This document shows positions 25,776 through 63,583 of a DNA stretch of 64,000 nucleotides, in pieces. The stretch's first letter is position 1, and every line of letters begins with the position of its first letter. The position numbers and the translations under genes are program-made. The notes beneath the pieces are model-generated. The model made no database searches. It was not told where the DNA came from and was given only the letters and a program-made list of their open reading frames with translations. Source of the DNA: Altererythrobacter sp. Its GTDB lineage: Bacteria; Pseudomonadota; Alphaproteobacteria; Sphingomonadales; Sphingomonadaceae. Where the stretch lies: contig JAFKFN010000017.1 in NCBI GenBank assembly GCA_017308255.1, forward strand, positions 11,386 to 75,385, written 5' to 3'.

Positions 25776-25852
25776 GCGCCCGTAGCTCAGCTGGATAGAG
25801 CACCAGACTACGAATCTGGGGGTCAGAGGTTCGAATCCTTTCGGGCGCGCCA
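25776..25852 (+). tRNA. tRNA-Arg(ACG)
   Basis: GCGCCCG/CGGGCGC acceptor stem, anticodon arm CCAGA-CTACGAA-TCTGG, TTCGAAT T-loop, encoded CCA, 77 nt. Confidence 0.98.
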
Positions 25853-27508
25853 TTTCGGTTCAAAGGCACGAACGCCTAGCACCGCCGCCTCTACGCCAGA
25901 GGCGGCGGTTAGGGTTCGGAGCAGTTCGCTCCGCAGTCCACGGATGCGGACCTCCTTCCGGCTCACCACTTCAACCCGCTGCGCGACCGCGCGAACCTGA
26001 TCGCGAGCGAACGTCCCATCGCCGTTCCGCAGCTTCTTGCGCAGGGCCGCCGCAAACGCCCGGAGGGTTTCCGGCGTGATCGCTGGGCCGATCTTTACGA
26101 TATGCGCCAAGGCGCGTTCGGAATCGCCCTTGGCCTGGTCGCGCGTCGCGGTCAGCTCGGTGATGCGATCCTTGAGCGATGGATCGTTCACGTCGATCAC
26201 GCCGTTCTCGATCGCGTCATAGAGGCGCTTGAGCTTCGCTTCGGCCTCGGTCGCGCGCCGTTCAAGATCGGCGACATGCTCGCGGCGCTGGTTCACCCAC
26301 TCGTCGCGCCGTTCGAGGATCTGATCCATCAGAGCTTCGAGCCGCGTAGGATCAAGCAGCCGTGCCTCGAGATGATCGACCACGGCCTCATTGAGCCGGT
26401 CCATCGGCACCGTGATGCCGGGGCAGCCGGTCGCGCCCTGCCGCGCCTTCGTCGAGCAGGTGTAATAGCGATACTCCCTCCCGACACTGCTGGTGCCCGT
26501 GCGCAGCGTCATCGCGCCGCCGCAGCACGCGCAGAAGCAGATGCCGGTGAGCAGCGTCGGGCCGCCCACTGCCATCGGCGCCATCATCTTCGGGCTGCGC
26601 GCCTTGAGCGAGCGCTGCACGGCCTCGAACTGGGCTTCCGACACGATCGCCGGCACTTCCATGACGGCGTGCTCGCTCTCCGGCTTCGGCGTCTTCGTCT
26701 TGTGATCGCGGGTGTTGAAGCGGTGCTGGCCGATATAGGTCGTGCGGGTGAGCACCTGATGCACCGCGCCCAAGCCCCACCGACCGCCGTCGCGGGTGCG
26801 GATGTTGTTCTCGTTGAGCCAGGTCGCGATCGACTTGAGGCCCATCGGCCCTTTGTTATCGACGCCGTTCAATGCCATCCGGTAGATGCGCCGCACCGTC
26901 TCGGCCTGGATCGGGTCGATCTCCAGCTTCTTCTTGATCTTCGCGCCGCGCTCGCCGGCCGCGACCACGCGATAACCGATGGGCGCCCGCGCGCCGTTCC
27001 AGAAGCCTTGTCGGGCGTTCTCCTTCATCGCTCGCAACGTGTGCTTGCCGTTCTCCTTCGACTGATACTCATCGAACAGCGTCATGATCTGACGCATCAT
27101 CACGCTCATCGGATCGTCGCCCAAATCCTGTGTGATGGAGATCAGCCGCACACCGTTCTTCGCCAGCTTGCGAACGTAGAACTCGAACTGGAACTGGTCG
27201 CGAAAGAACCGCGAGAAGCTGTGGACGAGAATGACGTTGAACGTCGGCGGCTTCACCATCGCCGCGTCGATCATCGCCTGGAAAGCTGGGCGACGATCAT
27301 CGGTCGCGGTGTTGCCCGGCTCGACGAACTCCGCGGCGACCTCCCAGCCGCGCGACAGGCAGTAGCCTTCGATCTGGCGGCGCTGGTCGGGAATCGACAG
27401 ATCGCTATCGGCCTGCCGACCCGTCGAGACGCGCAGGTAGAGCGCCGCGCGAGCGGTCGCCACGACTGGCGCCTCATCCTCATTTCGTCGCACGGCGGCG
27501 CTGGTCAT
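25823..27508 (-). CDS. Large serine recombinase (ICE integrase)
   Basis: YLRVSTGRQ catalytic Ser, HSFSRFFR, recombinase domain, CACCGG...YYTC zinc ribbon, coiled coil; last 10 codons (incl. stop) antisense to the tRNA. Confidence 0.96.
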   Translation of the reverse strand: MTSAAVRRNEDEAPVVATARAALYLRVSTGRQADSDLSIPDQRRQIEGYCLSRGWEVAAEFVEPGNTATDDRRPAFQAMIDAAMVKPPTFNVILVHSFSRFFRDQFQFEFYVRKLAKNGVRLISITQDLGDDPMSVMMRQIMTLFDEYQSKENGKHTLRAMKENARQGFWNGARAPIGYRVVAAGERGAKIKKKLEIDPIQAETVRRIYRMALNGVDNKGPMGLKSIATWLNENNIRTRDGGRWGLGAVHQVLTRTTYIGQHRFNTRDHKTKTPKPESEHAVMEVPAIVSEAQFEAVQRSLKARSPKMMAPMAVGGPTLLTGICFCACCGGAMTLRTGTSSVGREYRYYTCSTKARQGATGCPGITVPMDRLNEAVVDHLEARLLDPTRLEALMDQILERRDEWVNQRREHVADLERRATEAEAKLKRLYDAIENGVIDVNDPSLKDRITELTATRDQAKGDSERALAHIVKIGPAITPETLRAFAAALRKKLRNGDGTFARDQVRAVAQRVEVVSRKEVRIRGLRSELLRTLTAASGVEAAVLGVRAFEPKWRARKDSNL

Positions 27509-27526: not shown

Positions 27527-27772
27527 TCACGGCAGCGGCCCGAACAGCTTGTCCAGCTCTTGCCGCATATGGCCTTCGATCGCGCGCAGTTCGGCGTCGC
27601 CGATCGGAACTTGCTCCGGCCAGTCATCGGTGACGACGATTGGCCCATCATCTTCGCGCGACCGGCGCGAAGCCCGGCGCGGCGCGGCGCGATTGGTGTA
27701 GTCGTGCAAGTCATCCGGGCTTTCGGCCCAGCGACGAGGCGTGCGGCGGCGGAGCTTGCGAGGAAGGGCCAT
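27527..27772 (-). CDS. 81-aa hypothetical protein upstream of the integrase
   Basis: Basic N-terminus, acidic VTDDWPEQVPIGDAELRAIE C-terminus; its stop sits beside the integrase SD GAGGAG. Confidence 0.6.
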   Translation of the reverse strand: MALPRKLRRRTPRRWAESPDDLHDYTNRAAPRRASRRSREDDGPIVVTDDWPEQVPIGDAELRAIEGHMRQELDKLFGPLP

Positions 27773-27854: not shown

Positions 27855-28277
27855 TCATGCTGCGCCCCACGGATCGACGACCGTGATCCCGCAGTCGGCG
27901 AAATCGCGGACGTTGCGAGTCGCCAGCCGCGCGCCGCGCGAGCGCACGATGGCGGCAATCTGCGCGTCGATCTGGCTGATCGGTTTGCCACCGTGTTTCC
28001 GACCGGCGGCGATCTCGGGATAGGCCGCGGCGGCATCGGTATCGAACGGCAGGACGCGCCCCGCCAGATCGACATCGAACATCGGACGCGCGGCCGCCAG
28101 CAGATCATCGCGGCGGCGTCCCTCGGGGAGCAGCGCCAATCCGTAGAAGATTTCCGCCTGGGTCAAGGTCGTCGTGAACACCCCCGCCATCGGTTGCTCG
28201 GCGATCCACGCCATGACCTTCGGGTCAGGTTCGCGCCGCATCAGCTCGGAAATGACGTTGGTGTCGAGGACGATCAT
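27855..28277 (-). CDS. vapC: PIN-domain toxin (VapC/FitB)
   Basis: MIVLDTNVISE, DAQIAAI, LATRNVRDF. Confidence 0.95.
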   Translation of the reverse strand: MIVLDTNVISELMRREPDPKVMAWIAEQPMAGVFTTTLTQAEIFYGLALLPEGRRRDDLLAAARPMFDVDLAGRVLPFDTDAAAAYPEIAAGRKHGGKPISQIDAQIAAIVRSRGARLATRNVRDFADCGITVVDPWGAA

Positions 28278-28522
28278 CAGCCGAAGTCCACCGGCTCGCG
28301 GATCGCTTCGCGCGGCACGTCAGGCAGATCGACGCCGCCCAGCGGGCCGAAGCGTTCGTGGATTGCCTGACCAAGATTGCGAGGGCGAGGATCGTCAGTG
28401 GAGAGCGCCGAGCGCAGGATGTCCCGCGCCTCGTCTTCCATCGAACGGCCATTGACGGCCGCGCGCACGCGAAGGCGCTTCTTGATCGCATCGTCGATGT
28501 TTCGGATCGTCATCACCGCCAT
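28277..28522 (-). CDS. fitA: FitA/StbC-like RHH antitoxin
   Basis: MTIRNIDD...LRVRAAVNGRSMEDEARDIL; SD GGAGG; TGATG coupling to the toxin. Confidence 0.92.
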   Translation of the reverse strand: MAVMTIRNIDDAIKKRLRVRAAVNGRSMEDEARDILRSALSTDDPRPRNLGQAIHERFGPLGGVDLPDVPREAIREPVDFG

Positions 28523-28534
28523 ATGCACCTCCAT

Positions 28535-31695: not shown

Positions 31696-31995
31696 ATGGC
31701 GATCATCGGCACCTTCACCCAGGCGGACAACGGCACCTTCACCGGCACCATCACCTCCGCGACTCTCAAACTCAAGGCGACTCTCCGCCCCATCGACATC
31801 GAAGGCGACAAGGCGCCCAACTACCGACTCCTGGTCGGGACGGTCGAATGCGGCGCAGGTTGGAAGAAGACCAGCCGCCAAGAGCGCGACTACATCTCGG
31901 TCAAGTTCGACGATCCGACCTTCCCGGCGCCGATCTACGCCACCCTGTCCGAGACCGACACCGCTGGCGAATACGCGCTCATCTGGTCTCGCTGA
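31696..31995 (+). CDS. DUF736 family protein
   Basis: IGTF...APNYR...GAGW...YISVKFDDP-F-APIYATL...LIWSR. Confidence 0.9.
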   Translation: MAIIGTFTQADNGTFTGTITSATLKLKATLRPIDIEGDKAPNYRLLVGTVECGAGWKKTSRQERDYISVKFDDPTFPAPIYATLSETDTAGEYALIWSR

Positions 31996-32285: not shown

Positions 32286-33128
32286 ATGCACTACCAGCTT
32301 GCCACTCGGTTCGGTCGCAACGCCCATCAGATCAGCGGCCGGGAGCCGCTCGATAACGAGGCGCTGTATCGGCACGTCCCGTCAATCTTCGCCCGCGAGG
32401 CGCACGACAGCCGTTCGGATCGCTATGTCTATGTCCCCACCATCGACATCGTAGAGGGGCTGCGTCGGGAAGGATGGTCGCCGTTCTTCGCGGTCCAGTC
32501 CGTTCCGCGCGACGGCAGCCGCCACGGCCACGCCAAGCACATGCTGCGCCTGCGCCGGGATGACGGCATCGGCAAGCCCGAGGCCGCAGAAGTCATCATC
32601 GTGAACAGCCATGACGGGACCAGTGCCTATCAGATGTTCGCCGGGATGCTGCGTTTCGTCTGCACCAACAGCATGATCGCGGGCGAGCGGTTTGAGGAGG
32701 TGCGCGTTCCCCATAAGGGCAACATCGAGCACGATATCATCGAAGGCGTTTACACCGTCGCCGAGGACTTCCCCCGGCTGATCGACGCCAGCGAGTCGAT
32801 GAAGGCGATCCAGCTTTCGCCGGATGAGCAGCGCTTGCTCGGCGAGGTTAGCCTTGTTGCTCGCTATGGCGACGACGAAAGCCCGATTCGGCCCGAGCAG
32901 ATCATTGAGCCGCGCCGCCGCGAGGATGTAGACCGCAGCCTGTGGACCACATTCAACGTCATTCAGGAGAATGTCGTTCGTGGCGGGTTGCATGGCCGCA
33001 AGCGCAATGCGGAGGGCCGTATCCGCCGCGTGCAAACCCGCGCCATCAACGGCATCGACCAGAACGTGACGCTTAATCGCGCGCTCTGGACGCTGGCTGA
33101 GGGGATGCAGCGCCTCAAGGCCGCCTGA
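32286..33128 (+). CDS. DUF932/DUF945 family protein
   Basis: PSIFA...HDSRSDRYVYVPT, NSHDGTSAYQMFAGMLRFVCTN, LWTTFNVIQEN, NRALW; SD AGGAGG. Confidence 0.92.
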   Translation: MHYQLATRFGRNAHQISGREPLDNEALYRHVPSIFAREAHDSRSDRYVYVPTIDIVEGLRREGWSPFFAVQSVPRDGSRHGHAKHMLRLRRDDGIGKPEAAEVIIVNSHDGTSAYQMFAGMLRFVCTNSMIAGERFEEVRVPHKGNIEHDIIEGVYTVAEDFPRLIDASESMKAIQLSPDEQRLLGEVSLVARYGDDESPIRPEQIIEPRRREDVDRSLWTTFNVIQENVVRGGLHGRKRNAEGRIRRVQTRAINGIDQNVTLNRALWTLAEGMQRLKAA

Positions 33129-33138
33129 CTGTTCCCCG

Positions 33139-33170
33139 CCGCAGGGCCGGAGTTCCGGCCCTGCGGTTTT
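33139..33170 (+). terminator. Intrinsic terminator after DUF932
   Basis: 12-bp perfect stem, AGTT loop, TTTT. Confidence 0.85.
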
Positions 33171-33282
33171 GCCGCTTGCGCGCCGATCCGCTGCGCCGGA
33201 TCGGCAGCGGCCGCGCGTCCCAAAGGTCCGCGCGGCCGCATGGGCGCGCTCACCGGGCTGGCGCCCGGCTCGCGGTGGGTAG

Positions 33283-33545
33283 TGGTAAAATCCCCAGCGC
33301 TGCCTTAAAAGGGCGATGGGCTGCTACGCGGCAGCCTGGGGTGTGGAAACCCCACGTTTAGCGGTTCGGCACCGGCCGTAACGGTGCCGCAATCCTTGAC
33401 CACGCGGTCGGGGAGCCTGTGACGTATGTCCAGGCGCTCCGGTGCTAAAGGTCACAGGAACCGTCTAAACGCGGTTTTCCAACTCCCCGATCAGGGTTCA
33501 GGAGCTGTTTGCGGGGGCGCACCGCAAACCAGCAGCCCCTGTGAG
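33283..33545 (+). ncRNA. Candidate structured non-coding RNA or long qseM leader
   Basis: Extended -10 TGGTAAAAT at 33283-33291; many nested and crossing helices with G-U pairs on the plus strand; no credible ORF. Confidence 0.45.
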
Positions 33546-33660
33546 TGTGCAGTAGGCAATGCAGATTCCGCGCGCAATTATGCCTGGCAAGCACGTCGAA
33601 AATGCTCGGCATTGTCCTATTGGTTAACGCGGACGGGAAGCCAAGGGCATGGTGGTCAAG

Positions 33661-33924
33661 ATGAGATTCGATGATCGGGCGCCCGATTCACCACAACTCA
33701 CCAGCTATGACGAAGGTCATCTGGCAGATTATCTGCGCTTGCTCGACGCCGACGCCGATGGGGCCGATTGGCGCGAGGCTGCGAGGCTGATCTTCGGCAT
33801 CGACACGACCGCCGAGCCGGATCGCGCGAAGACGATGCACGACTCTCACTTGGCCCGCGCGCGGTGGATGACTGAGGTTGGCTACGCTCATCTGCTCGGC
33901 TGTCAGCGCCCGCTAAACTGTTAA
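33661..33924 (+). CDS. qseM: QseM-like DUF2285 antiactivator
   Basis: TSYDEGHLADYLRLLDADADGADWREAARLIFGID...HDSHLARARWMTEVGYAHLL; alternative start 33649. Confidence 0.85.
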   Translation: MRFDDRAPDSPQLTSYDEGHLADYLRLLDADADGADWREAARLIFGIDTTAEPDRAKTMHDSHLARARWMTEVGYAHLLGCQRPLNC

Positions 33925-34072
33925 GATTTAACTCCAATCTGGATCGAGTTCCGGGGGTAATTGCTCCGCTCGCACGGCATGGTTGTGCGCGATCTTCGCC
34001 CTAGCAAACGTCAGTGGCGACCGGGATGTTCGGTGCTCCGAAATCCGCGCGAGGCGCGGTGGGGAGGATGCA

Positions 34073-34856
34073 ATGCCGACGCCGCCTGGGCGTCGCCAGC
34101 GACGCGCCGGCGGAATGTCCGACGCGCTCGGGCGCGCCGATCTAGCCGCGGAGTTCTTGCGGCGGAACCGCACCTACCGCGCCGAACATACGCAGATGCA
34201 AGAGCGCATCGACGAGGGCGCCGTCGCGAAGAACGCCGCCGAATTGGCGTTCGCGCGGCGCTGGGGGTTATCCTTTCGCCACGGCGCCGGATGACCTCTC
34301 GGAGCCGGTCGTCTGGCGCCCGGAGCTGACCGCTGTCACGGTCATTCTCGACGCTGCGCCGGAGGGATTCAAGACCGCCGCTCCGGTCGATCCTCGCGCA
34401 CTCGGGGCGCTGCTCGCCGACCTGGCCGGGATTGAAGGCCGCCACGTCATCGTCGCCGACGCGGCCGGCGAGCATCGACTCTGGCTGCGCGATGCGACCC
34501 CCGGCCGGCCGCTCGCGGCCATCATCCCGCTTGACAAGGATTTCCCCACCCGGATCGCCAGCTTGCTGCGTTTCCACCGCCGTCTGCTCGGCCGCGCTGC
34601 CGGGCCGCTGCCGCGCGGCTGGCCGCTTACCGCCTACCGGCTCGCCCGGCTCGACCTGATGCTCCGCGCGCTCGACCTGCGTGATGCCGGAGCAACCTAT
34701 CGCGAGATCGCCGCCGAGCTGGGGCGTGACGACGCGAACAAACTATCCGCGAGCGACTGGAAGATGTCGGCCTCGCGCTCGTTCGTCGTGCGGCTGGTCC
34801 GCGACGGCATCGCCATGATGAACGGCGACTACCGCAAGCTGCTCCGCATCCGCTGA
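34073..34856 (+). CDS. fseA: FseA-like transcriptional activator made by +1 programmed frameshift (DUF6499 ORF 34073-34294 joined to DUF2285 frame 34275-34856), 260 aa predicted
   Basis: SD GGAGG; AAEFLRRN; CGC.TGG.GGG.TTA.TCC.TTT.CGC at 34259-34279; the +1 frame is open with LRALDLRDAGATYREIA HTH. Confidence 0.88.
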
Positions 34857-34986
34857 TCCCCTCCCCGCTGCCACCCCGCGCGTGGGGGGGGTCACATCCG
34901 CGTAGCCGCACATCTTCATACCCCACCCAGCCGCCTCCGTTCTGACAATTACGCCTCCTGCCGCCACCGCCCGCAGGAGTCGTCAC

Positions 34987-35253
34987 TTGTCCGATACGCC
35001 CACCAACCTGCCGCCCCGCTTCCTGCGCACGCCGGAAGCCGCCCGCTTCCTCGGCCTCTCAGGCCGCACCCTTGAAAAGCACCGTTATTTCGGCACCGGC
35101 CCGGCCTACCGCCGGATCGGGGGCCGGGTGGTCTATTCGGTCGATGACCTGCGCGCCTGGGCCGATATCGGCATCAAGCATTCGACCTCCGATCCGGGGC
35201 AGGACGACCTCATGCCGCGCGCGGATTCGGCCATCGCCCGGAGCCGGCGATGA
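34987..35253 (+). CDS. rdfS: AlpA/MerR-type HTH excisionase (RdfS-like)
   Basis: FLRTPEAARFLGLSGRTLEKHRYFGTGPAYRRIGGRVVYSVDDL; TTG start, SD CAGGAG. Confidence 0.9.
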   Translation: MSDTPTNLPPRFLRTPEAARFLGLSGRTLEKHRYFGTGPAYRRIGGRVVYSVDDLRAWADIGIKHSTSDPGQDDLMPRADSAIARSRR

Positions 35254-35756
35254 CCGTCCCGCCGTCGCCCATGCGCCACCGCCAGCCGTCCGATGACGGC
35301 ATGACTCGCGTCGAACTGACGTGGATCGAGAAGCGGATTGAGCACTGGATCAGGTTCGGCCGCGTCGCCGTTGACGAGATCGTCGATCGCCGCCGCCGCA
35401 TCGTCCGCTTCCGCCCCGGCGCCATCTTCGCGTTCGTCCGCTGGGCGGCGAACGACTACGGCACGGTAAGCTCGCGCATCGACATCGTGCGCGCGGTCGG
35501 CGCGGGCGAGCCGTTCACGACACTGCCATTCGTGCGGCCGGGCGGCGACATCCTGCTCAAGATCGAGGGCTGGCCCAAGGTCAGCCAGGTGCTCGCCGCG
35601 ATCGACGCGGCCGAGGCGGCCGGCGTCGATCCGTGCGACGCCGCACCCGATCATTGGCGACACGTCGCCAACCGCATCGCCGCCGGACATCAGCCGCGCC
35701 CCTATACGCTGGAGCGCCATCGCGCCTGGCTCAAACGCCGAGAGATCGAAGGATGA
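35250..35756 (+). CDS. DUF2840 family protein
   Basis: TRVELTWIEKRIEHWIRFG, RWAANDYGT, PDHWRHV. Confidence 0.9.
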   Translation: MTVPPSPMRHRQPSDDGMTRVELTWIEKRIEHWIRFGRVAVDEIVDRRRRIVRFRPGAIFAFVRWAANDYGTVSSRIDIVRAVGAGEPFTTLPFVRPGGDILLKIEGWPKVSQVLAAIDAAEAAGVDPCDAAPDHWRHVANRIAAGHQPRPYTLERHRAWLKRREIEG

Positions 35757-36298
35757 CGCCCCGTGGATGGACCATCGCGACGGCTTCCGCCGCGTCGGTG
35801 TTCGCCGTGTCGTTCACTGCCGTCGCGATATTCGACCCGCTGCCGCGCGTCATCTGGAACGCCAGCGCCAGCGCACCGCTCGGCCTCTACCGGATAGAGC
35901 CCGACCGCGATCCCGCCGTCGGCACGCTGGTCGCCGTTACGCCGCCCGCGCCGCTGGCGCGGTGGCTGGCCGAGCGCAGCTATCTTGGTGAGCGTGTGCC
36001 GTTGTTGAAGCATGTCGCGGCCAAGCCGGGGCAGTTTGTGTGCCGGATCGGCGCCGTCGTGAGCGTCGATGCCCGGCCGGTCGCCGTTGCCCTGGCGCGT
36101 GACGGACGAGGCCGCTCGCTCCCCGTCTGGCAGGGCTGCCGCACGCTGCGCGGCAGCGAGCTGCTGATGCTCAACCCCCAACACGCGGACAGTATGGACG
36201 GCCGCTATTTCGGCCCGCTGCCGGCCTCGACCGTGCTCGGCCGCGCCGTCCCGATCCTCACCCGCGACACCCCCAACGCGTCGCTCGTGTGGCGCTGA
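35753..36298 (+). CDS. traF: S26 family pilin-processing peptidase TraF
   Basis: WNASASAPLGLY, LLKHVAA, SMDGRYFGP. Confidence 0.92.
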   Translation: MTPRGWTIATASAASVFAVSFTAVAIFDPLPRVIWNASASAPLGLYRIEPDRDPAVGTLVAVTPPAPLARWLAERSYLGERVPLLKHVAAKPGQFVCRIGAVVSVDARPVAVALARDGRGRSLPVWQGCRTLRGSELLMLNPQHADSMDGRYFGPLPASTVLGRAVPILTRDTPNASLVWR

Positions 36299-36333
36299 AC
36301 CCGCTCATCCCTGCCAACCCAAAGGAGAGTCCC

Positions 36334-36669
36334 ATGCAGATCGGCAGCTTCTTCCGCACCGCCAACGGTTACGAAGGCATCATCGAGACCGCGACGCTCG
36401 ACATTCGCATCTCGATCGTTCCGGCCGAGCCGAGCGACGCCGACAATGCGCCGAACTGGCGCATTCATCGCGGCGACGGCGGCGAAGGCCCAGAGATCGG
36501 CGCGGGCTGGAACGAGACCGGCGAACGCGCCGGCGATTACGTCTCGCTGCGCATCGACGATCCCGCCTTAGCCCAGCCGCTCCGTGCCGCGCTGTTCCAG
36601 ACCACGGGCGACACGTCGGCCTGGTCGCTGCGCTGGAACCGCCAACCGAAGTCGCGCGAGCAGGACTGA
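36334..36669 (+). CDS. DUF736 family protein, second paralog
   Basis: MQIGSF, APNWRI, EIGAGW, YVSLRIDDP...LRAALF...LRW; SD AAGGAG. Confidence 0.88.
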   Translation: MQIGSFFRTANGYEGIIETATLDIRISIVPAEPSDADNAPNWRIHRGDGGEGPEIGAGWNETGERAGDYVSLRIDDPALAQPLRAALFQTTGDTSAWSLRWNRQPKSREQD

Positions 36670-36673
36670 TCCG

Positions 36674-37585
36674 GTGCGCTTTTCCATCATCCCTTTGTTC
36701 GCGGGAAAGCCGTCTCATCCCTCCGTCCCGCTCGGTCGCAGACCGGCCGGGGCGCGCAGCGGAGGTCAAAGGCGGCCGCAGGCCGGCGCGGCGCGCGCAC
36801 CCTTGAGCGTAGCGAGCACGCTGGCAGGCTGGCGGCGGAGCGGAGTCGGATCGGCGGTGGCGTTGGCCGTCGCGCTGATGTCCGGCGGCGCTGCGCCGGT
36901 CGCGGCAACGGCGCAGGATTTGCCGGCCGCACGATCGGCGGCGGCTCATCCATATGCCGGTCATGTCGCCGAGGCCGCGCGGCGATTCGGCATCCCCGAA
37001 GGGTGGATATGGGCGGTGATGCGCGTCGAGAGCGGCGGCAACTCCCGCGCCGTTTCGCGTGCGGGTGCGATGGGATTGATGCAGATCATGCCCGCGACCT
37101 GGGCCGATCTTCGCGCGCGATATGGCCTCGGCGCTGACCCGTTCGACGTGCGAGACAACATCATGGCGGGCGCGGCCTATCTGCACGCGATGCACGACCG
37201 CTACGGCAACGCGAGCGCGATGCTGGCAGCCTATAATGCCGGGCCGGGCCGCTACGACGATTACCTGTCGCGCGGCCGTCCGCTGCCGCCCGAGACGGTC
37301 GGCTACCTAGCTCAGCTCAGCGCCGTTGTCGGCCCATCGGGCGCTGCGGAGATGGCGGTGAGCGCACCGCCTGATCCGTTCGCCTGGCGCCGCGCCGCGC
37401 TGTTCGTCCGCACCGCGAGCGCCCCGTCCGAAGCCGTTTCCGTGCAGTCAGATGGCGAGGAGCCCGCGTCGGAGCTGCCAGCCGATGGGCCGACATCCGG
37501 TGACGTTCGCTCCGCAGCTTCGCCTTCGAATGAGCCGGAGGACACGCTGTTCGTGCCCCGCGCCCGCGCGGGCCGACTGCAATGA
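36674..37585 (+). CDS. Lytic transglycosylase (SLT, Msi107-like)
   Basis: VMRVESGG, GAMGLMQIMPAT, AAYNAGPGR; start uncertain. Confidence 0.88.
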   Translation: MRFSIIPLFAGKPSHPSVPLGRRPAGARSGGQRRPQAGAARAPLSVASTLAGWRRSGVGSAVALAVALMSGGAAPVAATAQDLPAARSAAAHPYAGHVAEAARRFGIPEGWIWAVMRVESGGNSRAVSRAGAMGLMQIMPATWADLRARYGLGADPFDVRDNIMAGAAYLHAMHDRYGNASAMLAAYNAGPGRYDDYLSRGRPLPPETVGYLAQLSAVVGPSGAAEMAVSAPPDPFAWRRAALFVRTASAPSEAVSVQSDGEEPASELPADGPTSGDVRSAASPSNEPEDTLFVPRARAGRLQ

Positions 37586-37823
37586 TTTGCGCGCTATCCC
37601 CATCATCCGTCCCGAGCAGGAAAGTGGCTGGGGAGGGAGAAAACGACAGGGACAGACGAGGGCAAGATATAAGCAGCGCCCCGTTTCGCCGAAAAGCCGA
37701 GGCTTTTCCGTGGCTTCACGCGGGGGCATCGGTCGGCACGCGTGCCGCGCGGAAGGAAAAAGGCAGCAATATCAACGTGCCGAACGGCACCACAGGCCGT
37801 TTTCGGCGGAAAGCCGTTCAGCC

Positions 37824-39584
37824 ATGAGCGAGGACGGCGAGTTCCGCGTCCGGCCGGGCAAGGCTAAGCGCACCAACGCCCAGGGCCGCAACGCGCGCGG
37901 GCTGGTGGCCGAGGTGCTGCGCGTGGCCGCCCTGCACAGCGGCGGCCGGCGCGGCGGTGCCAGCAGCGGGCACCGCGGTGCGCGATCGAGCTTTGGCCGG
38001 GGCCGCACAGCGTTCGCGCGCAATCGCCTGTTCGGCTCGGGCCGGCGGGTCATGGTGAAGATGCTGCCCGTCACCACGCGCAGCCGGGGCGGCCGGCGCA
38101 TGGCGCCGCTGTCCGCGCACGTTGCCTATCTGAAGCGCGAGGGCGTTACGCGCGACGGCTCGCCGACGCGCATGTTCGATGCCGAGGGGGACCGCGCCGA
38201 CGATCGCGGGTTCACCGAGCGGTGCAAGGATGACCGGCACCATTTCAGGGTCATCGTGTCGCCCGAGGATGCGGCCGAGCTGACGGACCTACGCGAATAC
38301 ACCCGCGACCTCATGCGCCAGATGGAGGCGGATCTGGGGACGCGGCTCGATTGGGTCGCGGTCGATCATTGGAACACTGACAATCCGCACGTCCACCTGA
38401 TCGTGCGTGGCGTCAACGATCAAGGCGGCGATCTCGTCATCTCCCGCGACTACATCAGCCACAATCTTCGCTCGCGCGCAGAGGAGCTGGCCTTCGCCGA
38501 GCTCGGGCCGAAGCCCGAGCATGAAGTCCAGCGTGCGCTCGACCGCGAGGTGACGGCCGAACGCTGGACGCGGCTCGACACGGAGATCGGCCGGGCCGCT
38601 GACGAGCTCGGCGTGATCGACCTCCGCCCCGAGCGGCCTGGTCCGGACGATCCGCGGTTACGCCGGCTGATGATCGGGCGCTTGCAGCATCTGGAGACGA
38701 TGGGGCTCGCCGCCGAGGGCGAGCCCGGACAGTGGGCGGTGGCGGAAGGCGCGCAAACCAAGCTGCGCGAGCTGGCCGCACGCGGCGACATCATCCGCAC
38801 GATCGGCGCGGCGTTGAAAGAGCGCGGCCAGGATCGGCCGCTCGATAGCTACGCCGTCGTCAGTGGTGCGCCCGAGAAGCCGATCGCCGGCCGGCTGATC
38901 GACAAGGGCTTGCACGACGAGCTGACCGGCACGGCCTATGCCGTGATCGACGGCACGGACGGGCGCACCCATCATGTCCGGCTTCCCGGCATTGAGGCGC
39001 TGGAGCACAGCCCCGCACTCGGCGGCGTCGTCGAGCTGCGCGGCGTCGGCCGCCCCGGCGAGGCGAAGCCGACGCTGATCCTTGCCACGCGGTCGGACCT
39101 CGACCTCGCCGCGCAGATCAAGGCGCCCGGTGCGACCTGGCTCGACCATCGGCTGATCGAGCGCGGCGCCGGGGTCGCGGACGGCGGGTTCGGCGCCGAG
39201 GTGCGTCGGGCGATAGACGCCCGCACCGACCATCTCGTCCGCGAGGGACTGGCCCGACGCTACGGTGAACGCGCGGTGTTCGAGCGCGGACTGCTCGACA
39301 CTCTGCGCAAGCGCGAGCTGGATGCCGTTGGCGCGAAGATCGCGGGCGATACCGGCCTTGCCTATCGCCCGGCCGCCACTGGCGAGAAGGTCGCCGGCGT
39401 GGTCCGCCAGCGGCTTGCGCTCGCCTCGGGCCGCTTCGCGATGATCGACGATGGGCTCGGCTTCCGCCTCGTGCCCTGGGCCAGCACTCTCGAGCAACAG
39501 CTCGGCCGGCAGGTCGCGGGCGTCGTCCGCTCAGGCGGCAGCATCGACTGGACGCTCGGCCGCAAACGCGGCCTCGGCCTCTAA
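37824..39584 (+). CDS. rlxS: Relaxase (RlxS/VirD2-like with DUF3363)
   Basis: HVAYLKREGV (Tyr), HHFRVIVSPED, HWNTDNPHVHLIVRG (HUH). Confidence 0.94.
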   Translation: MSEDGEFRVRPGKAKRTNAQGRNARGLVAEVLRVAALHSGGRRGGASSGHRGARSSFGRGRTAFARNRLFGSGRRVMVKMLPVTTRSRGGRRMAPLSAHVAYLKREGVTRDGSPTRMFDAEGDRADDRGFTERCKDDRHHFRVIVSPEDAAELTDLREYTRDLMRQMEADLGTRLDWVAVDHWNTDNPHVHLIVRGVNDQGGDLVISRDYISHNLRSRAEELAFAELGPKPEHEVQRALDREVTAERWTRLDTEIGRAADELGVIDLRPERPGPDDPRLRRLMIGRLQHLETMGLAAEGEPGQWAVAEGAQTKLRELAARGDIIRTIGAALKERGQDRPLDSYAVVSGAPEKPIAGRLIDKGLHDELTGTAYAVIDGTDGRTHHVRLPGIEALEHSPALGGVVELRGVGRPGEAKPTLILATRSDLDLAAQIKAPGATWLDHRLIERGAGVADGGFGAEVRRAIDARTDHLVREGLARRYGERAVFERGLLDTLRKRELDAVGAKIAGDTGLAYRPAATGEKVAGVVRQRLALASGRFAMIDDGLGFRLVPWASTLEQQLGRQVAGVVRSGGSIDWTLGRKRGLGL

Positions 39585-62174: not shown

Positions 62175-63583
62175 ACAATTGGTGGGCGCATATCCGAACC
62201 ATGCTGTGGCGCCCGAGCCTTCGCGCACGCCTCATCCTGATCCTTTTCGTCACATTCTGCGCTGGACTGCTCGGGGCTGGCGCCTTCTTCTATTGGGAGG
62301 GGGGCGCCATCGGGGCCGGGCTGCGCGAGCGCAGCCTTCAGGAACAGGCTCGTCAACTGCTGGACGGTTTGTCTTCCGGGAGCAGCGGGCAGACAGCCGC
62401 AGCGGCGCTGCGCTCGGTCGATCCCATCTACGCTCGCCCGGGCGCGGCCTACGGCTATACGCTGTTCGACCGGGATGGACGCGTGCGGGCCGTGTCCGAA
62501 AGCCGCCGCGGCAGCGGCCCACTGCCGTTCACGCAGCTCCCCGGTTTCGGTGAGCAGTTCGGCCCGGTCTTCTTCGTGGGGCCAAGCCGAATTGCGGCCA
62601 TGACCGTTCGCACACCGGACAATCGTTTCTTCTTGATCGTGTCCCGCGACGATCCCGATCCCAGGACGCTGGCGGAAAGCCTCATCGAGCAGGACGCAAG
62701 GCCACTCTTCATCCTGGCGCCTTTCGTGCTCCTTGCCTTTGCCCTTATCGTGCTCGTGATCAACCGCACGCTTCGTCCGCTTGAGCGGGCTTCGTCCGAG
62801 GCCGCTCGGATCGGCCCGGCGTCGTCGGTGGCACGCGTTTCGCCAGCCGGGCTTCCGTCGGAAATCATTCCGCTCGTGAAAGCCTTCAACGGCGCGCTCG
62901 ACCGGCTACACAAGGCGTATCATTTCGAGAAGCAACTAACTGCGGATGCCGCGCATGAGCTGCGGACCCCTTTGGCGGTGTTGCGGATGCGCCTAGAGCG
63001 CGCCCGCTTGAGCACCGAGACGCAGCTCGATTGGGAGGCTGTCAGCCGCGACTTCGCTCAGATCGACCGCCTCACGGCCCAGTTGCTCGACTTGGCCCGC
63101 AAGGAGCAGGTCGGAACCCCTGAGCGCAAATCCGAGGTAAACATGTCGCGGGTGGCGCGCGAAGCCGCCGCGCTGCTCTTGCCGATGGTCGAACGAGCAG
63201 ATCGATCGCTCACCGTTGTGGCACCTGAGCCGGTGGTTATCGCCCACGGCGTCGAGGACGATCTTCGAGACATGCTCCGGAATCTGATCGAAAATGCCCT
63301 GATTCACGGTAAGGGCGCGATCACCGTAACTGTGGAGCGCGTCGGTCGCCGCGACCGCGACTACGCCACAATAACGGTTGAGGATGAGGGCGGGGGCGTA
63401 CCCGAATCGATCCGTGAGCTCGTATTTGAGCGATTTCGGAAAGGTGACGCCTCAACACGAGGAGCTGGGCTTGGCCTCGCGATCGTGCGGCATGTTGCTG
63501 GGAAGCACGGAGGAACCGCCGAGTTTCAAGCGGGTCCCCAGAGCTGCGTTCGGATTACCCTACCCCTTGTAGGGCCGGAATAG
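62171..63583 (+). CDS. Sensor histidine kinase (QseC-like)
   Basis: Two TMs, HAMP, DAAHELRTPL, NLIENALIHG, DEGGG, GAGLGLAI. Confidence 0.96.
   Translation: MNNWWAHIRTMLWRPSLRARLILILFVTFCAGLLGAGAFFYWEGGAIGAGLRERSLQEQARQLLDGLSSGSSGQTAAAALRSVDPIYARPGAAYGYTLFDRDGRVRAVSESRRGSGPLPFTQLPGFGEQFGPVFFVGPSRIAAMTVRTPDNRFFLIVSRDDPDPRTLAESLIEQDARPLFILAPFVLLAFALIVLVINRTLRPLERASSEAARIGPASSVARVSPAGLPSEIIPLVKAFNGALDRLHKAYHFEKQLTADAAHELRTPLAVLRMRLERARLSTETQLDWEAVSRDFAQIDRLTAQLLDLARKEQVGTPERKSEVNMSRVAREAAALLLPMVERADRSLTVVAPEPVVIAHGVEDDLRDMLRNLIENALIHGKGAITVTVERVGRRDRDYATITVEDEGGGVPESIRELVFERFRKGDASTRGAGLGLAIVRHVAGKHGGTAEFQAGPQSCVRITLPLVGPE

Follow-up and report, generated by a model that had tools for sequence, protein, structure and literature searches.

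How does an integrative and conjugative element (ICE) decide to transfer when it carries the core switch of ICEMlSymR7A, i.e. the antiactivator gene qseM, the activator gene fseA and the excisionase gene rdfS, and none of the inputs known to act upstream of it? We studied this question on a 64,000-nt stretch of the Altererythrobacter sp. genome (assembly GCA_017308255.1, contig JAFKFN010000017.1; here contig C26, positions 11386-75385), which is referred to as the window and whose own coordinates are used unless a contig or locus is named. The genome comprises 3.16 Mb on 37 contigs and is 99.99% complete. A first-pass annotation, made from the letters of the window, had placed the three genes in tandem on one strand, and they do lie at 33649-33924 (qseM), 34073-34856 (fseA) and 34987-35253 (rdfS), all on the plus strand. 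How R7A-type elements without quorum sensing (QS) decide on transfer is a question for a very large family; Jowsey et al. (PMC10359603) reported 4,709 FseA homologues, 61% of them with a frameshift. Our analysis suggests, with a probability of roughly 0.55, that the locus is a QS-independent, QseC-less switch of the ICEMlSymR7A type, in which a structured leader RNA upstream of qseM sets the level of this brake in response to some signal.

The known upstream inputs are missing from the element

To look for the QS components, the 3.16-Mb genome, except for 2,944 bases of contig C10, was searched with PF03472 (Autoind_bind) and PF00765 (Autoind_synth), and nothing scored above cut-off. PF01381 (HTH_3) gave 24 weak-to-strong matches in the genome, none of them on C26 at E ≤ 1. 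A hidden Markov model (HMM) built from 48 qseC genes that adjoin qseM elsewhere likewise matched contigs C6, C21 and others, with no match on C26. The earlier claim that neither LuxR/LuxI nor an XRE-type qseC lies between the integrase and the window end is therefore borne out by HMM searches of the genome and of the whole ICE contig, and no qseC or traR/traI module lies to the right of the window, the ICE ending inside C26. That these inputs are absent is one matter and that their absence is unusual another: QseM/FseA occur on numerous ICEs without QS genes (Ramsay & Ronson, 2015), so that for QS the supposed oddity did not stand and the QS-less switch is correct but ordinary.

Within the 520 bp before qseM, no open reading frame (ORF) with a Pfam family was found. 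Two small ORFs at 33426-33674 (plus strand) and 33445-33612 (minus strand) were considered as genes and rejected; they match no Pfam family, and conservation across them tracks base pairing, not codons.

A structured leader RNA lies at the position of qseC

The 520-bp gap is conserved over its full length at 73-81% in five other genera of the family, and its middle part alone matches many more genomes. Comparison with sister loci by blastn revealed a modular composition of a block following the DUF932 gene, a core at about 33318-33553 and a proximal spacer. The following features were assigned:

33136-33277, plus strand: conserved DNA block after the DUF932 gene, left edge of the swapped cassette (blastn against sister loci)
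33283-33310, plus strand: promoter-like elements of the leader, TGGTAA-16 nt-TTAAAA (cross-locus conservation)
33318-33553, plus strand: structured leader RNA of the traM/qseM-leader family, about 235 nt (covariation and covariance model)
33554-33648, plus strand: spacer between leader and qseM with a possible second, proximal promoter (alignment of leader-type with QseC-type loci)

The left block, which is common to QseC-type and leader-type loci, contains a GC-rich hairpin (33140-33165) followed by TTTT. Downstream of it, the -35/-10-like pair stands 7-10 nt before the 5' end of the covariance-model match and recurs in 31 loci of different contexts, which would place the RNA start at about 33318-33321. 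A scan of 33000-35300 with the E. coli consensus returned neither a promoter nor a terminator; the promoter call is one of conservation.

The evidence for a structured RNA comes from covariation. An alignment of 18 core copies showed helices with compensatory changes, and RNAalifold predicted 43 pairs, 13 of them compensatory. One helix pairs about 33410-33422 with about 33481-33492 and encloses another. A covariance model then aligned 37 matches, 32 of them distinct; on these 32 sequences 97.4% of the cells are paired, in an alignment that is fitted to the model structure and thus favors it. Compensatory changes were seen at 21 of the 43 pairs, compared to 9.4 ± 1.6 in shuffled alignments (none of 500 reached the observed number) and to 1-5 when the partners were slid by 1-3 columns. 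The RNA also has many invariant unpaired positions. As G-U pairs are frequent on the plus strand (they would be A-C on the opposite one), the RNA is assigned to the strand of qseM. The window leader, whose sequence is part of the seed, matches model positions 1-236 with 201 bits (33321-33553), and plasmid members outside the seed reach 135-169 bits. No Rfam 15 family matched the leader locus at the gathering score, and only chance hairpin matches appeared at E ≤ 10. The leader occurs as a single copy in the genome. Folding of the single sequence of leader plus qseM start gave z = -3.3 and did not reproduce the consensus fold.

From the end of the leader to the start of qseM it is 95 nt. Weak homology connects this spacer with the part of QseC-type loci next to qseM, including TCGAAA-N16-CTATTG, GGTTAACG and the Shine-Dalgarno-like AAGGG.

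Leader and QseC replace each other upstream of qseM

To determine what stands upstream of qseM elsewhere, we scanned 1.3 kb before the gene in the best 80 of at least 590 qseM loci, with one genome per species. Since relatedness and some redundancy exist among the sampled loci, these numbers characterize the sample and not independent events:

QseC-like ORF upstream: 48/80 loci
leader RNA upstream: 21/80 loci
neither QseC nor leader: 11/80 loci
both QseC and leader: 0/80 loci

Of the 11 loci with neither, at least 7 have in common another conserved upstream region, the third kind, in which a co-directional ORF of 83-90 aa shows borderline HTH_3 similarity. Searches with the covariance model found the leader in none of seven QseC-type loci (six sister loci and that on C6 of the same genome) and in none of seven loci of the third type. 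This third cassette measures about 480 bp, and its ORF begins with MITSRQVRAARALLGW and matches HTH_3 with 22.8 bits; it was seen at L127:2095-2346 and also in L104, L111, L114, L131, L134, L138, L018 and L024.

The exchange is most apparent in the pair L065 (leader type) and L080 (QseC type), which align at about 85% on both flanks, with only some 420 bp before qseM unalignable; as judged from this alignment, it is a clean cassette exchange. The preceding DUF932 gene is 89-98% identical across sister loci, QseC type and leader type alike. A FastTree phylogeny was built from 69 distinct qseM-fseA-rdfS modules. On the midpoint-rooted tree the loci of the three upstream types are interspersed and require 9 parsimony changes, a pattern that is suggestive only.

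The leader type is also widely distributed. Modules of 5.3 kb are 99.6-100% identical in Prosthecomicrobium, Enterovirga, a Xanthobacteraceae metagenome-assembled genome (MAG) and a Sphingomonadaceae isolate (L065, L066, L067 and L069), and a second set of 5.2-5.3 kb (L080, L081 and L082) is 99.6-100% identical between Brevundimonas and Sphingomonadaceae. Such near-identity across orders implies either very recent inter-order transfer or assembly contamination. The window module itself is 98.5% identical to that of Sphingopyxis sp. LK2115, and the window-type switch region together with the leader is present in at least 16 distinct sister loci. Because the 5.3-kb modules are 99.6-100% identical across Sphingomonadaceae and three Hyphomicrobiales genera, leader-type elements are, to judge by this distribution, functional in nature.

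The same RNA precedes traM and other genes

Outside the qseM loci, blastn identified the leader core in 390 plasmid records (208 of Agrobacterium, 80 of Rhizobium, 20 of Bradyrhizobium, and others), and among the plasmid matches listed no annotated feature covers it. On pTiC58, traM, whose product is the antiactivator of TraR and unrelated to QseM, begins 1 nt after the end of the model match, and traM likewise follows the leader on plasmids from Mesorhizobium sp. NBSH29 and Sinorhizobium sp. RAC02. On an Ochrobactrum plasmid it stands before a 100-aa 'transcriptional regulator' beside traR, which is probably TraM. Small helix-turn-helix (HTH) regulator genes follow it on pMRAD01 and pRetTAL182c. 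Overall, the distance from the end of the leader to traM or a small HTH regulator gene is 1-30 nt in six of seven sampled plasmids; in the seventh, from Bradyrhizobium, an IS630 element sits between leader and traM.

For pTiC58, transcript data are available. According to the mapping by Lee et al. (2013; supplement of PMC3738593), traM transcripts start 234 nt ahead of the start codon, a position 3 nt before the covariance-model match. In the same supplement the traM 5' untranslated region (UTR) of 217 nt (pTi_149938F) is listed among the abundant RNAs for each of the four conditions examined there, and TraM protein is lower in an hfq mutant (PMC4201532). Beyond this transcriptome listing, we did not find the traM/qseM leader described in the literature searched as a regulatory element or riboswitch.

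The leader was further observed before DUF5818 or lipoprotein genes with no qseM, fseA or rdfS nearby (L023, L030-L033, L035 and L038). In L030, for example, it occupies 1985-2217, followed by a DUF5818 gene at 2220-2447 and flanked by a divergent ORF at 1282-1995. Leaders of this group are often divergent from a conserved 237-aa ORF (MGGINSGRRRSV...) that has no Pfam family.

The core switch is of the R7A type

The switch region downstream of the leader contains the following features:

33649-33924, plus strand: qseM, antiactivator of 91 aa with DUF2285 only (Pfam PF10074, 31 bits); alternative start at 33661
33981-34004, plus strand: conserved block in the qseM-fseA spacer, candidate fseA promoter/operator (alignment of nine loci of both types)
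34073-34277, plus strand: fseA part 1 (msi172-like), DUF6499 with AAEFLRRN motif, up to the slippery UUU-C (Pfam PF20109, E = 4e-17)
34278-34856, plus strand: fseA part 2 (msi171-like), DUF7012 and DUF2285, after the +1 shift (Pfam)
34857-34986, plus strand: PrdfS region, presumed FseA target (highly conserved between leader-type and QseC-type loci)
34987-35253, plus strand: rdfS, winged-HTH excisionase/transfer regulator (Pfam HTH_17, PF12728)

PF10074 is the sole Pfam match of QseM, which lacks an EFLRRN-type motif and aligns over 80 residues (4-83) with R7A QseM (PDB 7UQT; E = 4.9e-18). Its net charge is -5 as compared to +10 for the DUF2285 domain of FseA, charge being a proxy for the surface only; an acidic antiactivator versus a basic DNA-binding activator is the distinction drawn by Jowsey et al. 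(PMC10359603). In the G-Y pair before the last helix, G78 is invariant and Y79 is kept in at least 90% of 17 homologues. The block between qseM and fseA is present in QseC-type and leader-type loci; the sister loci have TGCGC twice, about 11 nt or one helical turn apart, and the second copy in the window reads TCGCC.

The reading of fseA as one ORF had to be abandoned. The gene lies in two frames and needs a +1 shift at TCC-TTT-C (TTT at 34274-34276): a TGA at 34292-34294 closes the DUF6499 frame (34073-34294), and in the +1 frame reading can continue to 34856. If TTTC is read as one step, an open product of 260 aa with PF20109, PF22792 and PF10074 results. The predicted slip site UGG GGG UUA UCC UUU C (34262-34277), with UGGGGG upstream, fits the slippery UUUC after a G-rich tract described for msi172-msi171 (PMC4755241), and the motif CGN-TGG-GGG-TTR-TCC-TTT-C is kept in most of the 80 sister loci.

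RdfS matches R7A RdfS (PDB 8DGL) with E = 1.7e-10, and its gene heads the string rdfS-DUF2840-TraF-DUF736-SLT upstream of the relaxase gene. As judged by homology, the three genes are thus real, encode R7A-type proteins and stand in tandem. The first-pass annotation had called them an excision switch; the core module stands, with R7A-type homology throughout, and the excision part was an extrapolation, as the integrase is a serine recombinase and not the tyrosine IntS, for which RdfS has been proven to be the directionality factor. A second PrdfS-like copy was found neither in the window, nor elsewhere in the genome, nor near the integrase. Since the integrase is of the serine type and no PrdfS-like site lies near it, an excision step through RdfS is less certain; its putative role as a transfer regulator is not lowered by this. 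On ICEs and plasmids, rdfS is conserved in its place before traF and the relaxase gene, which speaks at least for a role in transfer (PMC11963761).

The leader as the likely input to the switch

How could these parts work together? By homology with R7A, FseA would be made only by a rare +1 ribosome slip at UUU-C and would activate PrdfS, thereby turning on the rdfS-traF-relaxase string, and the acidic single-domain QseM would bind the DUF6499 end of FseA and keep the element off. Going by the work on R7A, RdfS would turn on the transfer functions. qseM would be transcribed with or behind the leader and from the promoter of the latter, given that no terminator was predicted to separate the two. 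The leader may then take the role of QseC as the upstream input and set the amount of brake through elongation, stability or translation, responding to a ligand, to a small RNA (sRNA)/Hfq or to a protein. It is tempting to speculate that, with qseM and fseA in tandem, a leader lowering QseM synthesis rather than transcription could tip the QseM:FseA ratio. Among the sources that the first-pass annotation had offered for a different signal feeding the same core, namely the upstream structured element, the LysR regulator and the cargo two-component system, only the first has gained evidence; the R7A-type core and the missing inputs were confirmed, and nothing ties the other two to the switch.

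A farther-reaching version takes the leader for a sensing riboregulator, i.e. an orphan riboswitch or an RNA- or protein-responsive element, that serves as an RNA alternative to the QseC/QseC2 epigenetic switch and decides the transfer of hundreds of alphaproteobacterial ICEs and plasmids, including Ti, via the brakes QseM, TraM and small XRE repressors. We regard this version as tentative and doubtful as a whole.

Several observations speak against the switch as outlined, with the leader as the setter of the brake. The leader is not restricted to brake genes; genes for DUF5818 and lipoproteins have it upstream, too, in contexts that do not look conjugative. The 95-nt spacer may hold a promoter of its own, so that the leader may be absent from most qseM mRNAs, and at this distance it cannot simply mask the qseM ribosome-binding site. 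For the leader, neither a ligand nor an alternative fold nor a terminator could be recognized. Further downstream, the published FseA box consists of two inverted hexamers 15-16 bp apart beside the -35 element of PrdfS; a search of the PrdfS region for this arrangement, made without consensus letters, found no hexamer inverted repeat with at least 5/6 matches at the published distance and position. The role of RdfS in excision, finally, is a putative one in an element with a serine integrase.

These points bear on what else could explain the locus. The element might have no dedicated input at all, with stochastic noise of qseM and fseA damped by the frameshift and by QseM titration, and the leader acting as a constitutive 5' UTR that stabilizes the message or sets its translation. 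R7A-type switches do become active in only a small fraction of cells, and a noise-damping effect has been ascribed to the frameshift (PMC4755241); the lack of a recognizable ligand-binding pocket, alternative fold or terminator and the constitutive accumulation of the leader in C58 under four conditions are in line with this. However, an RNA of 235 nt in which 21 pairs covary and numerous unpaired positions are invariant goes far beyond what a stabilizer needs, and the leader has been retained ahead of two brake genes that are not related and exchanges cleanly with the cassette of a protein regulator, which makes a purely stochastic switch rather unlikely. Nor do we favor the view that the leader is a separate small RNA or the remnant of a graft, with qseM constitutively expressed from the proximal promoter and the decision taken at the fseA promoter by a regulator of the host or the ICE. 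The homology of the 95-nt spacer to the qseM-proximal region of QseC-type loci, with its -35/-10-like boxes, the conserved block upstream of fseA (33981-34004), which has repeated TGCGC and is present in loci of both types, and the occurrence of the leader before unrelated genes would suit it. Yet there is no terminator between leader and qseM, the leader abuts the downstream start codon in other qseM loci and on plasmids, and leader and QseC are mutually exclusive; we consider this arrangement quite improbable.

Regulation from elsewhere appears far less probable again. The genome harbors a second, complete ICE on C6 with qseC, qseM (57% identical), fseA and rdfS, whose QseC or QseM could act in trans on the window element. 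The palindromic operators of the C6 qseC-qseM pair are absent from the window, the C-terminal parts of the two FseA proteins are only 39% identical, and leader-type elements are found in many genomes whether or not these contain a second ICE, all of which renders such cross-talk very improbable. The cargo regulators, LysR or the OmpR-type two-component system, would feed the switch as the only other classical regulators on the element; but they adjoin efflux/PAP2 cargo 17-28 kb away, no shared motifs were found, and the switch region with its leader recurs in the sister loci mentioned above, so that we give this connection hardly any credence. We therefore retain the leader RNA as the probable input that sets the QseM level.

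The element and its borders

Comparison with empty sites in relatives showed that the switch belongs to an ICE of about 38 kb inserted at a tRNA-Arg gene, with the entire insert on C26. Its other main features are:

25776-25852, plus strand: tRNA-Arg(ACG), left border of the ICE (ARAGORN and Rfam)
25823-27508, minus strand: ICE integrase, large serine recombinase (Pfam Resolvase, Recombinase and Zn_ribbon_recom)
31696-31995, plus strand: DUF736 gene (Pfam)
32286-33128, plus strand: DUF932 gene, the last before the switch region (Pfam PF06067, E = 2.4e-44)
35250-39584, plus strand: transfer genes for DUF2840, TraF (S26 peptidase), DUF736, lytic transglycosylase (SLT) and the MobA/VirD2-DUF3363 relaxase (Pfam)

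In insert-free congeners, the folE-side flank follows 1.3-2.2 kb downstream of tRNA-Arg and is homologous to C26:77247 onward. The last cargo gene encodes a histidine kinase and ends at 63583; DUF488, a TUDOR-like gene and NnrS come next. From the empty-site flank at C26:77247 and the end of the last cargo gene, the right end of the ICE is placed at about 63.6-64.6 kb. The limits are thus taken from the empty sites of relatives and not from direct repeats; attL/attR direct repeats were searched for at the ICE and not found, and none are expected with a serine integrase. The large serine recombinase is the sole integrase at the border, where no tyrosine IntS is present. Besides RdfS, the product of an 81-aa ORF at 27527-27772 is a candidate for its directionality factor. 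All genes between 31.7 and 39.6 kb are on the plus strand. Apart from the switch, the only classical regulators on the ICE are the LysR gene at about 52.1-53.2 kb and the OmpR-type two-component system at 61.4-63.6 kb. A PIN-domain toxin with a FitA-like ribbon-helix-helix antitoxin (VapBC-like) is encoded at 27855-28534 on the minus strand, between the integrase and a ParB-like gene.

A second related ICE in the same genome

The second ICE lies at C6:216.9-254.3 kb and has the canonical divergent qseC-qseM pair, a two-frame fseA and rdfS, together with traF, relaxase, traG and trb genes and a ParB-like gene (its region 232000-245000 is locus L055). Its qseC is located at C6:239663-239902 (HTH_3, E = 3e-12). 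The identities to the window proteins given above are those of QseM and of the C-terminal part of FseA, and it was the palindromic operator words of the C6 qseC-qseM spacer that were searched for in the window.

Further traces of mobile elements were noted in the genome. A third TraG/Trb type IV secretion cluster at C9:3590-15830, with 40-68% identity to that of the window, lies on a 26-kb contig that is possibly a plasmid or ICE fragment. At C6:21071-21437, beside a paralogous tRNA-Arg, there is a fragment that shares 72% identity with the C-terminal 95 residues of the window serine integrase; it looks like what is left of a similar element that had inserted there before. Among the QseC-like ORFs of the genome, the one ranking second (C21:34843-35112; HMM E = 1.4e-13, HTH_3 57 bits) adjoins no DUF2285 gene.

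Significance and comparison with known systems

What appears to be new here is a qseM without qseC whose upstream cassette is, as far as the sequences tell, a structured RNA shared with traM and in strict alternation with QseC, an arrangement that we did not find described. It means that the top of the cascade is modular, with the same core behind a QseC cassette, a second kind of small-HTH cassette or a structured RNA; Colombi et al. reported frequent rearrangement of top-level regulators. The RNA shared with Ti traM links two unrelated antiactivator systems via one upstream element. Moreover, a single RNA of 235 nt offers a testable way to approach the signal by which conjugation is released in elements disseminating efflux, catabolic and symbiosis/virulence-plasmid genes.

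The closest characterized system is ICEMlSymR7A of Mesorhizobium japonicum R7A (Ramsay et al. 2013, 2015, 2022; Jowsey et al. 2023; Verdonk et al. 2025), with homologous QseM, FseA and RdfS. In both, FseA combines DUF6499 and DUF2285 and has its +1 site UUU-C behind a G-rich stretch, an acidic QseM stands against a basic DNA-binding domain in FseA, and rdfS heads the traF-relaxase string. Unlike R7A, the window element has no TraR/TraI and no QseC/QseC2 and carries a structured RNA at the qseC position. Its qseM is in tandem with fseA, whereas the two genes are convergent in R7A, and it uses a serine recombinase in place of the tyrosine IntS. The RdfS match begins at R7A residue 18, the N-terminal extension of the R7A protein having no counterpart here.

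The C-protein controllers of restriction-modification systems, the model for QseC, resemble the leader in position and in setting the level of a downstream 'brake' on a mobile element. They are, however, protein repressor/activators with operators, and here there is neither such a gene nor such an operator.

With the traM 5' UTR of pTiC58 and its rhizobial homologues, the leader shares the RNA family and the place before the antiactivator gene of a conjugative element. There, the RNA abuts the start codon on plasmids with TraR/TraI, whereas here it ends 95 nt away on a QS-less ICE.

Most similar in gene order are the QS-less QseC-QseM-FseA-RdfS ICEs, the common form, which is represented by the C6 ICE of the same genome and by 48 of the 80 loci. 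They have the same order of DUF932, cassette, qseM, fseA and rdfS, with flanks up to 85-93% identical; the difference lies in the cassette of about 420 bp, which holds the leader in the window element and a divergent HTH_3 gene with palindromic operators in the QseC form.

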